DNA of 24,156 nt from a virus (taxonomy: Duplodnaviria > Heunggongvirae > Uroviricota > Caudoviricetes). The stretch is taken from IMG/VR virus record IMGVR_UViG_644736359_000007; one strand, 5' to 3'. The notes under the pieces were generated by a model, which saw only the letters and a program-made list of their open reading frames with translations, had not been told where the DNA came from and did not search any database. Below, piece after piece: positions 4,960 through 6,265 of this stretch (the stretch's first letter is position 1; each line of letters begins with the position of its first letter). Both the position numbers and the translations under genes were made by a program.

Positions 4960-5175
4960 ATGAAAACTGATATCACTGCCATGTCTGAAAATATAGTTGG
5001 ATTCTTTGAGAAAACAACACTACGTGACCACATCAAAAAAACATGGCTATACAATGAAAACTGCTTCGTTATTGACTTCGAATATAAAGGGGTGAAATTT
5101 GCATTAGATTTCACAGCCAGCCAGCCAGCCAGCCAGCCAGCCAGGTGTGAATGTGGATTTTGTACTACGAAATAA
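4960..5175 (+). CDS. Leader ORF (71 codons) ending in an AGCC-repeat-encoded SQPASQPA tail; out of frame with the downstream glycosyltransferase at the current repeat number
   Basis: ATG at 4960 preceded by AGAGG RBS (7-nt spacer); possible -10 TATAAT at 4891-4896; reads through the (AGCC)7 tract and stops at 5173-5175, overlapping the GT2 ORF in another frame. Confidence 0.4.
   Translation: MKTDITAMSENIVGFFEKTTLRDHIKKTWLYNENCFVIDFEYKGVKFALDFTASQPASQPARCECGFCTTK
5115..5142. repeat. Tetranucleotide microsatellite (AGCC)7
   Basis: Seven perfect tandem AGCC units read directly from the sequence, lying between the leader ATG (4960) and the GT2 glycosyltransferase body. Confidence 0.95.
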
Positions 5176-6265
5176 TTGCCCTTATTATACTATAAAAGGC
5201 AACACTAAAAAAGAAAACATTTCATCTTCTGCTGTTTTAACAACAGCCCTGCATACTTCTCTTCTAAAAATCACAACGGTAATTAATGAAATTAATTCTA
5301 TTTATCCCTTTGATGTCTCAGTTGTTATTCCGGTTCACAACCGAGAAACCCTTATTCTCGAATGCATTAAATCTTTAAACAATCAGACTATAGATAAAAA
5401 TTGTTTTGAAGTTATTTTCATTGATGACTGTTCCACTGACAGGAGCATTGCCGCCATTGAATATAACATTTCGAGAGAAATAAATTATCGTATTATCCGT
5501 AGAGCAGTTGGTTCAGGGAATGCATCAGCGCCGCGAAATGAGGGAATAAAATCCGCAAAAGGTCGCTATGTGTTTTTCTTAGACTCTGATGATTCCATTC
5601 ACTCTGACTTACTGTCCGATGGTATTCAGATGGCTTATAAAAACAATAGTGACATTGTATATTTCAAGCAGGTTTCCTCTACAGGGAGAGGGGTTCCTGT
5701 ACGCCCATTTAAGGCAGACACGAATAAAGCAGATATTATAAAAAACCATCTTTTTAGATCATTAAAAATCTTCAAGTTCTTTAAAAGAGAGTTGCTAATC
5801 AATAACAACATCTTATTTAACCCATCAATTTCAGTCTATGAGGATATGCTTTTTTCTTGCCAGAGCCTAACTGTAGCTAATACGATATCTATACTGGCAA
5901 GAAAGGGCTACTACTCTCTGAATCGCCATGAAGAACCACATCTATCTAAAACATCTTTCTCCATTAAACAAAGAGCCTTGGTATTACAAACAGGTTTGAT
6001 TTATATCTTATCAAGCAATAAAAATGAAGCAGAAATAGTAAAAATGTTTAATGCATGGCTGGTTATTTGCGTTGAGCACTTGGCATCCATATTATCCAAA
6101 AAAAGTTTAACAACTAATGAGAAGTCTCACGTTTTTAACTTGATACATAAATCACTCTTACCATATACAGGGCTTGTAAATGAGTCCCAAATATATCCCG
6201 CACAAAGAGAGCTTGTCAGTTGCTTAATCTGTGGAGATTATTCTTCTTTTTGCGAAAAAATATAA
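5147..6265 (+). CDS. Family-2 (GT-A fold) glycosyltransferase
   Basis: Conserved GT2 motifs VSVVIPVHN, DDCSTD, APRNEG and FLDSDD in the first ~150 aa. There is no in-frame ATG: candidate starts are GTG 5147 or GTG 5153 (AGGTG RBS-like at 5143-5147), or ATG 4960 after a one-unit change in the AGCC tract. AT-rich, atypical for the prophage backbone. Confidence 0.75.
   Translation: MNVDFVLRNNCPYYTIKGNTKKENISSSAVLTTALHTSLLKITTVINEINSIYPFDVSVVIPVHNRETLILECIKSLNNQTIDKNCFEVIFIDDCSTDRSIAAIEYNISREINYRIIRRAVGSGNASAPRNEGIKSAKGRYVFFLDSDDSIHSDLLSDGIQMAYKNNSDIVYFKQVSSTGRGVPVRPFKADTNKADIIKNHLFRSLKIFKFFKRELLINNNILFNPSISVYEDMLFSCQSLTVANTISILARKGYYSLNRHEEPHLSKTSFSIKQRALVLQTGLIYILSSNKNEAEIVKMFNAWLVICVEHLASILSKKSLTTNEKSHVFNLIHKSLLPYTGLVNESQIYPAQRELVSCLICGDYSSFCEKI

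Follow-up and report, generated by a model that had tools for sequence, protein, structure and literature searches.

A hypermutable AGCC tract within a predicted TarS/TarP-like glycosyltransferase gene of a P2-like Escherichia coli prophage: a likely phase-variable mobile contingency locus

Introduction

Repeat-driven phase variation is a hallmark of pathogens with small genomes, such as Haemophilus, Neisseria and Campylobacter. Among the tetranucleotide phase-variable genes of Haemophilus influenzae and Neisseria are lic2A, lgtC, lex2 and modA, the last of which carries AGCC repeats. For Escherichia coli, only inversion and methylation switches are described in a 2025 review (PMC11868660), and in the literature that we searched neuO is the only characterised natural case driven by a repeat. 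This work addresses a second candidate, a tract of seven AGCC units inside a predicted glycosyltransferase gene of a defective P2-like prophage. The stretch of DNA analysed, hereafter the window, is the 24,156-nucleotide (nt) record IMGVR_UViG_644736359_000007 of IMG/VR. It is identical to positions 2098775-2122930 of the E. coli B strain REL606 (NC_012967), covers the whole prophage, which lies between yegQ/ogrK and yegR. We consider it likely that this gene is a phase-variable mobile contingency locus of the neuO/CUS-3 type, modifying a surface polysaccharide that is probably a ribitol-phosphate capsule.

Related switching systems

The gene neuO of prophage CUS-3, resident in E. coli K1, has been called a 'mobile contingency locus' (Deszo et al. 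2005; PMC3046976). Its 7-nt repeat occurs in 2-93 copies and is ON at multiples of three (PMC3046976). We regard neuO as the closest known system, the likeness being an analogy of mechanism and not membership of one family. Both genes are borne by prophages, and the glycosyltransferase is predicted to modify a host surface polysaccharide as neuO does. Both contain a tandem repeat in the 5' coding region, with a unit that is not a multiple of three and is translated as a peptide repeat, and in both the full-length frame occurs at multiples of three. The tract described here spans nearly the same range of copy numbers (3 to about 86 units), and an allele of the glycosyltransferase in a P22-like prophage lies exactly where neuO lies in CUS-3, with int on one side and the tailspike gene on the other. 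The differences are equally clear. The predicted enzyme is a GT2 glycosyltransferase, whereas neuO encodes a left-handed beta-helix O-acetyltransferase acting on K1 polysialic acid; the repeat is a 4-nt AGCC unit read as SQPA instead of a 7-nt unit read as RLKTQDS; and the tract lies 52 codons into the gene, in a loop of a folded domain, whereas that of neuO begins two nucleotides after the start codon. The glycosyltransferase gene is also found in P2-like phages.

As in the Haemophilus and Neisseria loci, a tetranucleotide tract within an open reading frame (ORF) is predicted here to act as a slipped-strand translational ON/OFF switch. The AGCC unit is the same as that of modA, and the switched gene encodes a glycosyltransferase for a surface glycan, the acceptor being a prediction in the present case. 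The host is E. coli, and the locus is borne by a phage instead of the chromosome. No relationship in sequence to the Haemophilus and Neisseria genes was found, and no search aimed at one was made.

The gtrABC operons, which glucosylate the O-antigen, show phase variation that depends on Dam and OxyR. Those of P22-like phages likewise bring about lysogenic conversion of a surface glycan by a temperate phage with stochastic expression, as is predicted for this locus, and distant GT-A matches of the enzyme are annotated 'GtrB-like' in PHROG. The proposed switch is a genetic repeat tract, in contrast to the epigenetic one of gtrABC. A Dam/OxyR switch of the P22 gtr type was considered for the window and rejected, as there is a single upstream GATC (in 4068-5000) and no gtrA or gtrC partner ORF between the sheath and fibre genes.

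The AGCC tract and its reading frames

The initial annotation, made from the letters of the window alone, had reported a perfect seven-unit AGCC repeat in a leader ORF, placed ahead of a glycosyltransferase body in a different frame. A regular-expression search finds (AGCC)7 exactly at 5115-5142 (plus strand; REL606 2103889-2103916), and TRF returns 5114-5144 with period 4, 7.8 copies and 100% matches, which confirms the repeat. It is the sole tetranucleotide repeat of at least four units in the window, and nothing like it appeared in 100 dinucleotide-preserving shuffles. The tract is perfect, has a unit length not divisible by three, and starts 52 codons after the ATG at 4960, inside a coding region; its in-frame translation is a series of SQPA repeats. 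On its 5' side lies the coding segment called the leader (4960..5114, plus strand), which would fold as the start of a small N-terminal domain, with two helices and its first three beta-strands. On its 3' side lies the glycosyltransferase body (5143..6265, plus strand), in the +1 frame relative to the leader and closed by a stop codon that ends at 6265. The body completes the N-terminal domain and also encodes a long helix, a GT-A catalytic domain resembling that of TarS/TarP, and a C-terminal part that is helical.

In the window, with its seven units, the two parts are out of frame. The leader ORF runs from ATG 4960 to 5175 (plus strand) and gives a truncated 71-aa OFF-state product with the old locus tag ECB_01992, now ECB_RS23820; the link between that tag and the leader ORF is taken from PMC12147273. 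The GT2 ORF is open from 5108, following a TAG at 5105-5107, to 6265. Its first in-frame methionine lies deep within the GT-A domain, which leaves GTG 5147 and GTG 5153 as the sole candidate starts ahead of the catalytic domain, an arrangement on which the ORF scan and the initial annotation agree. RefSeq places the GT2 coding sequence at 5153..6265 (plus strand, ECB_RS10540), starting from the second GTG, which is an N-terminally truncated reading of the gene. The leader ATG was also said to have a good ribosome-binding site, and this is borne out by a Shine-Dalgarno sequence, AGAGG, at 4948..4952 (plus strand), 7 nt upstream, with a duplex energy to the anti-Shine-Dalgarno of -6.5 kcal/mol, a value reached by about 6% of random window positions. 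The corresponding energies at the GTG candidates 5147 and 5153 are -3.1 and -3.8 kcal/mol, against a random mean of -1.8 +/- 2.4. A candidate sigma-70 promoter (TTCACA-17-TATAAT, 11/12 matches) at 4695..4723 on the plus strand, about 237 nt 5' of ATG 4960, is weak evidence, being a consensus match only, of a kind no commoner in the region than in shuffles.

The tract therefore interrupts the reading frame, and multiples of three fuse the leader to the GT2 body. Simulated tracts of 6, 9 and 12 units give a single ORF of 433-441 aa, so that the loss of one unit or the gain of two restores the fusion, as had been proposed; simulated tracts that are not a multiple of three give a truncated product of 60-79 aa. 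The same rule holds in nature. In annotated carrier genomes PGAP calls one ORF from the leader ATG at multiples of three and two ORFs otherwise, and the natural multiple-of-three alleles are annotated as single ORFs of 450-540 aa.

Variation of tract length

The locus is present in 29/5426 complete E. coli genomes at 97.8-100% identity, and the copies are nearly uniform apart from the length of the tract. Across the 29 genomes it measures between 7 and about 86 units, and the lower bound falls to 3 when other genomes and contigs are counted. Exact counts come from fetched loci, all with pure AGCC tracts: REL606 (7 units), CUVM3 (15), CPww7 (18), ATCC 11303 (21), B-RalR (34), B (35), B-DolR (45), CP029371 (59) and strain 4069 (66). 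For the remaining genomes the counts were inferred from locus length, and include 7, 8, 10, 11, 11, 13, 18, 19, 19, 20, 23, 34, 34, 35, 35, 35, 50 and 60 units. The B lineage alone holds tracts of 7, 10, 21, 34, 35, 45 and 59 units, and the drug-resistant derivatives of one laboratory B stock of 35 units have 34, 34 and 45. Viral and metagenome contigs carry 5, 6, 6, 19 and at least 23 units, and one database protein carries 3. The comparison of repeat number across relatives, which the initial annotation had recommended, thus yields wide variation even among derivatives of a single laboratory stock.

Heterogeneity within cultures is also on record. A 4-nt indel was present at 19-21% in two control cultures of REL606 derivation (depth above 2000x), and eight evolved populations carried it at 32-34% (PMC7750951). 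That study names the seven-copy repeat as hypermutable and cites Tenaillon et al. 2016; the tract is also named hypermutable in PMC12147273. Deep sequencing, another of the proposed checks, thus gives mixed tract lengths at 19-34% in these cultures. Changes in ECB_01992 recur in evolution studies as parallel or background-enriched events of unknown function (PMC10195153; bioRxiv 2024.02.21.581449). As the evolution literature records these indels, the instability of the tract was already known as a nuisance hotspot. Our literature searches found no functional description of the gene and no paper linking the hotspot to the transferase or to phase variation.

Another explanation of such variation would be an artefact of assembly or sequencing, with repeats collapsed or mis-called. 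It would account for the impure tracts of two long-read assemblies, DETEC-P881 and HET6 (one extra C), and one viral contig ends within the tract. However, the differences in unit count are exact multiples of 4 nt in otherwise pure tracts with flanks that are 100% identical, and +/-4-nt changes have been recorded here in independent studies by Illumina deep sequencing and by clone resequencing. We therefore regard an artefact as very improbable.

The leader as the N-terminus of the enzyme

Homologues and a structural model both point to the leader as the true N-terminus of the glycosyltransferase, and to one gene instead of two. With a naturally fused allele as the query, repeat-free homologues of about 430 aa (429-455 aa; Leclercia and metagenomes) were found in which the equivalent of the leader joins the glycosyltransferase directly, for example as "...KDIKFALDFIPQQEGKISVDLIKR...". 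In relatives from Campylobacter and Psychrobacter a related small domain stands at the C-terminus instead (E = 0.001). The AlphaFold model of a 3-unit E. coli allele (pLDDT 92.9, pTM 0.89) contains an N-terminal alpha/beta domain with strands at residues 25-31, 35-42 and 45-53, then the repeat loop, then strands at 58-64 and 79-86. The repeat residues form the beta-hairpin turn between strands 45-53 and 58-64. Given that strands of one modelled beta-sheet lie on both sides of the tract, a frameshift would cut the sheet in half. Between the P2-type and P22-type alleles the leader has a nonsynonymous divergence (dN) of 0.016 and a synonymous divergence (dS) of 0.35, with dN/dS of about 0.05, which indicates purifying selection on its amino-acid sequence. 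The initial annotation had held that an untranslated leader would undo its reading, and the place of the leader as the conserved N-terminus of a protein family speaks against that outcome.

These data bear directly on a different reading of the gene, in which the enzyme is made constitutively from GTG 5153 (or 5147) with the ORF ahead of it being either a small gene in its own right or an upstream ORF that tunes expression by its length, a rheostat and not a switch. The start annotated by RefSeq, an AGG placed 7 nt 5' of GTG 5153 and the absence of the N-terminal domain from TarS and TarP are what this reading would predict, and at n = 2 (mod 3) the leader stop falls just 3 nt before GTG 5153, which would permit termination-reinitiation. 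On the other side, the Shine-Dalgarno energies of both GTG codons are weak beside that of the ATG, the small domain is present in all full-length homologues examined, whether N- or C-terminal, the modelled beta-sheet draws strands from both sides of the tract, and the low dN/dS means that the amino-acid sequence of the leader matters. We judge constitutive expression to be unlikely. Additionally, the RefSeq protein WP_000348282.1 and the PHROGs family phrog_22088 start after the tract, and the profile aligns with residues 58-429 of the full-length protein. As phrog_22088 aligns only from residue 58, the annotated family rests on the truncated, OFF-state reading.

Class of the enzyme

The enzyme is predicted to be a cytoplasmic, TarS/TarP-like GT2 glycosyltransferase of about 430 aa. 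Pfam assigns it to GT2 (PF00535) with E = 1.6e-28 and 100 bits against a cutoff of 23.3. In a phmmer search of PDB the best matches are TarS (2.4e-39) and TarP (1.3e-34), and the closest solved proteins also include RmlT of Listeria. Foldseek gives E = 5e-26 and a target-normalised TM-score of 0.80-0.86 for TarS/TarP over about 320 aligned columns, a likeness that reaches past the GT-A core. Neither D203-S-D-D206, taken as the DXD motif, nor E289-D290, taken to contain the acidic catalytic base, varies among 44 homologues, and both line up with their counterparts in TarS and TarP. The GT2 identity with GT-A motifs that was first read from the translation is thus upheld by PF00535 and by the DSDD and ED motifs. 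The Pfam and PDB searches returned GT2 glycosyltransferase matches only and no acetyltransferase homologous to NeuO, and the transferase had no match in PADLOC as an anti-phage defence protein.

TarS, TarP and RmlT all glycosylate poly(ribitol-phosphate). TarP and TarS of Staphylococcus aureus (PDB 6H1J, 5TZE) are the closest solved structures, and both share the DSDD and ED motifs with the prophage enzyme. TarP, a wall-teichoic-acid GlcNAc transferase, is likewise the cargo of a temperate phage and modifies a surface polymer of ribitol-phosphate. However, identity to TarS/TarP is just about 26-28%, the prophage enzyme has an extra N-terminal alpha/beta domain, its host is Gram-negative, and TarP is not phase-varied by a repeat tract.

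A ribitol-phosphate capsule as the predicted target

The initial annotation had left the target between a surface glycan and DNA or protein. The genomic company of the family favours the first. Family members in Campylobacter coli, Psychrobacter immobilis and E. coli AST215 lie in capsule loci, beside a bifunctional CDP-ribitol synthase, and those of C. coli and Psychrobacter adjoin a TagF-like transferase as well. The Leclercia member lies in a prophage, beside a tailspike with the same endosialidase-type chaperone domain as the tail fibre of the window. Nothing pointed to a DNA or protein target, for which no direct test was made. The acceptor is probably a surface polysaccharide, and the best candidate, put forward more tentatively, is a group 2 capsule of the ribitol-phosphate type. 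Region 2 of the B-type kps locus consists of a TagF-like gene, a CDP-ribitol synthase and two genes of unknown function. This B-type ribitol capsule locus is present in 18/29 lysogens, compared with 51/5426 genomes overall. It is intact in 17 genomes, 7 of which carry the transferase; natural lysogens of this kind include CUVM3 (15 units, ON) and CFSAN061763 (8 units, OFF). In the B strains the ribitol synthase is split by IS1 (also PMC7711218). It was also tried whether all 29 lysogens carry a ribitol capsule locus, and this could be shown for the 18 only.

Further observations concern these capsule loci. In AST215 (locus L019, 4990-6342) a repeat-free family member sits inside a group 2 kps locus, beside a 129-nt fragment of a tail-fibre-assembly gene, and the presence of this fragment suggests that the member was captured from a phage. 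Its leader contains a TAG nonsense codon at codon 18, and its loop sequence, ACCGCCAACCAGACAG, could plausibly have given rise to the AGCC repeat. One gene in region 2 of the B-type kps locus (locus L021, 12122-13081) is annotated 'phage baseplate protein' and matches PF21311 (E = 2e-15), the receptor-binding platform domain of phages with a 5-bladed beta-propeller, which is odd for a capsule synthesis locus.

Alleles and receptor-binding proteins

A second allele resides in a P22-like prophage related to CUS-3 and Sf6. There it is found between int and the tailspike gene, at the site where CUS-3 carries neuO and Sf6 carries oac; its tract has 70 units in GMF054 and 47 in CP029371. Between the P22-type and P2-type alleles the leaders are 93.5% identical in nucleotides, the bodies share 56% protein identity with saturated synonymous sites, and the upstream regions are unrelated. 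A third body allele (52-63% identical) has a nearly identical leader and is in frame at n = 1 (mod 3). With near-identical leaders on divergent bodies, the tract stands at a recombination boundary. Of the two alleles with readable neighbours, each is paired with a receptor-binding protein of its own: next to the P2-type body there is always a 952-aa fibre, and next to the P22-type body one particular tailspike. An endosialidase-type chaperone domain closes both of these proteins, and the central region of the fibre (242-431) is weakly similar to the centre of the P22-like tailspike (locus L020, 6539-9187; 24% identity, E = 2e-5), which hints that the receptors of fibre and tailspike may be related.

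The exact leader-plus-tract pattern was found in only 4 viral contigs and 5 metagenome contigs, and is absent from the GTDB species representatives. From these data a broader proposal can be drawn, which we think less likely than not: the 155-nt leader and the AGCC tract may form a portable phase-variation cassette that has been recombined onto at least three divergent glycosyltransferase alleles, and by which temperate coliphages stochastically decorate the ribitol-phosphate K-antigen capsule that serves as their own receptor. If true, the locus would stand as the phase-variable equivalent, in a Gram-negative host, of staphylococcal TarP, and as only the second contingency locus in E. coli known to be driven by a repeat.

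Further observations concern the carriers. NZ_CP029371 ('strain C'; loci L004 and L020) bears hallmarks of the B lineage, namely an identical tail-fibre protein and an IS1-split ribitol synthase, the IS1 junction being apparently elsewhere than in B (72% coverage). Both transferase types occur in it as phase-variable loci, with tracts of 59 units in the P2-type and 47 in the P22-type. CUVM3 and CPww7 have two leader matches each.

Proposed mechanism and evidence against it

In the mechanism that we propose, the transferase is moron cargo beside the tail fibre gene of a P2-like phage, and (AGCC)n interrupts its frame within the codons of a beta-hairpin loop. Strand slippage during replication would add or remove 4-nt units at high frequency. 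With a number of units divisible by three, ribosomes that initiate at ATG 4960 would read through the tract and produce the full-length enzyme with an (SQPA)n loop; as judged from the reading frames, such in-frame states are in all likelihood the only ones in which the complete enzyme is made. At other lengths, including the seven units of the window, translation would stop after 60-79 codons, and the catalytic part would be left without an efficient start and without half of its N-terminal domain. These OFF states would probably be without function, a truncated GTG product being possible. The enzyme may add a sugar to the surface polysaccharide, perhaps the ribitol-phosphate capsule, that is recognised by the phage's own receptor-binding protein. 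Modified and unmodified cells would then coexist at all times in a population of lysogens, which may amount to hedging. In E. coli B, where the prophage is defective and the capsule locus is broken by IS1, the tract would probably drift neutrally and be seen as the ECB_01992 hotspot. The phase-variation reading of the initial annotation is supported by the variable tract, the heterogeneity within cultures and the leader being the conserved N-terminus of the enzyme.

Several observations weigh against this mechanism. The ON and OFF states are those predicted from reading frames, and some of the unit counts come from long-read assemblies, among which DETEC-P881 and HET6 have visibly erroneous tracts. 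ON genomes number 8/29, about the one-third expected without selection, and there is no sign of selection for either state. The close spacing of leader stop and GTG 5153 at n = 2 (mod 3), together with the AGG, means that some truncated enzyme could arise by coupling, and such an enzyme might stay active, since TarS and TarP do without an N-terminal domain of this kind. The B-type ribitol capsule allele is missing from 11/29 lysogens, and none of these 11 turned up in a spread sample of other ribitol-synthase alleles. These 11 lysogens make the capsule link a partial one, a lead and not a result, and it could reflect shared ancestry or phage host range. Finally, blastn against 50,697 INPHARED records gave no match in a cultured phage.

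The share of ON genomes is also what would be expected if the tract were a neutral microsatellite in a decaying pseudogene of a defective prophage, its length changes being a mutational by-product and not an evolved switch. The state of REL606 fits this view, with truncated tube/D and S/portal genes in the prophage and IS1 inactivation of the likely capsule substrate (PMC7711218). However, the same locus is found in intact P2-like prophages, such as those of strain 4069 and CUVM3, both halves of the gene are free of other disruption in 29/29 genomes, and tracts remain pure up to 70 units. Additionally, the leader is under strong purifying selection, dN of the body is well below its saturated dS, and the same leader and tract recur, across two phage types, on three or more body alleles that have diverged. 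Neutral decay is therefore improbable as an account of the locus as a whole, and we retain the phase-variable contingency locus as the preferred reading.

Implications

Such a locus would be a second, independent example of repeat-driven switching in E. coli, with another enzyme class, a tetranucleotide repeat and a distribution over two phage families. This suggests that hedging of host-surface modification through repeat switching is a recurrent strategy of temperate phages. REL606, in which the locus lies, is the ancestor of the long-term evolution experiment and of many evolution studies. A contingency tract with its likely substrate absent from B would provide a simple neutral explanation for the ECB_01992 changes and a reason to mask the site. 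For annotation, RefSeq and PHROGs both hold the truncated form with the GTG start. The comparison also yields the prediction that a TarS/TarP-like enzyme acts on a Gram-negative ribitol-phosphate capsule.

The prophage and neighbouring features

The cassette is flanked by the tail sheath gene (2727-3917, minus strand) and the tail fibre gene (6477..9335, minus strand), an interval that we take to be the Z/fun cargo position of P2. Its GC content is 33-37%, against 52-58% in the adjoining phage genes, and the initial description of AT-rich cargo in the Z/fun position is thereby borne out. The tail fibre gene is the convergent neighbour of the transferase and encodes the predicted receptor-binding protein, with PF12571, PF13884 and the C-terminal endosialidase-type chaperone domain.

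Upstream of the leader, an AT-rich stretch at 4068-4959 (about 890 nt, 36.5% GC) holds no convincing gene; a 74-aa hypothetical ORF is annotated within it at 4151-4375 (minus strand). The stretch holds 4/5 of the terminator-like hairpins of the scanned region (shuffle mean 1.4). A perfect 11-bp GC-rich hairpin, GCCCCTCACCC...GGGTGAGGGGC, lies at 6305-6334, in the gap where the transferase and tail-fibre genes converge, with A8 directly after it on the plus strand. It was rejected as a canonical intrinsic terminator on either strand and is absent from the terminator calls. A search of the cassette and its surroundings for known RNA elements in Rfam at E <= 1 gave sub-threshold noise only.

The defects of the prophage are visible at two junctions: a D-gene remnant adjoins a tail-tube remnant (1935-2714), and a morphogenesis-gene remnant abuts a portal remnant (12702-13616). 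The tail, lysis and capsid modules of intact relatives (loci L002 and L003) have been deleted from the prophage of the window. Between baseplate gene V and the morphogenesis-gene remnant lies a 261-aa hypothetical protein (11845-12630, plus strand), which has no PADLOC match and is kept in the intact relatives. A P2 cargo hotspot between the portal remnant and replication gene A carries a three-gene Lamassu anti-phage system (13932-17623, minus strand), identified by PADLOC with E-values of 1.3e-108 for LmuA, 3.1e-34 for LmuC and 2e-233 for LmuB; RefSeq labels these genes 'ABC-three component system'.

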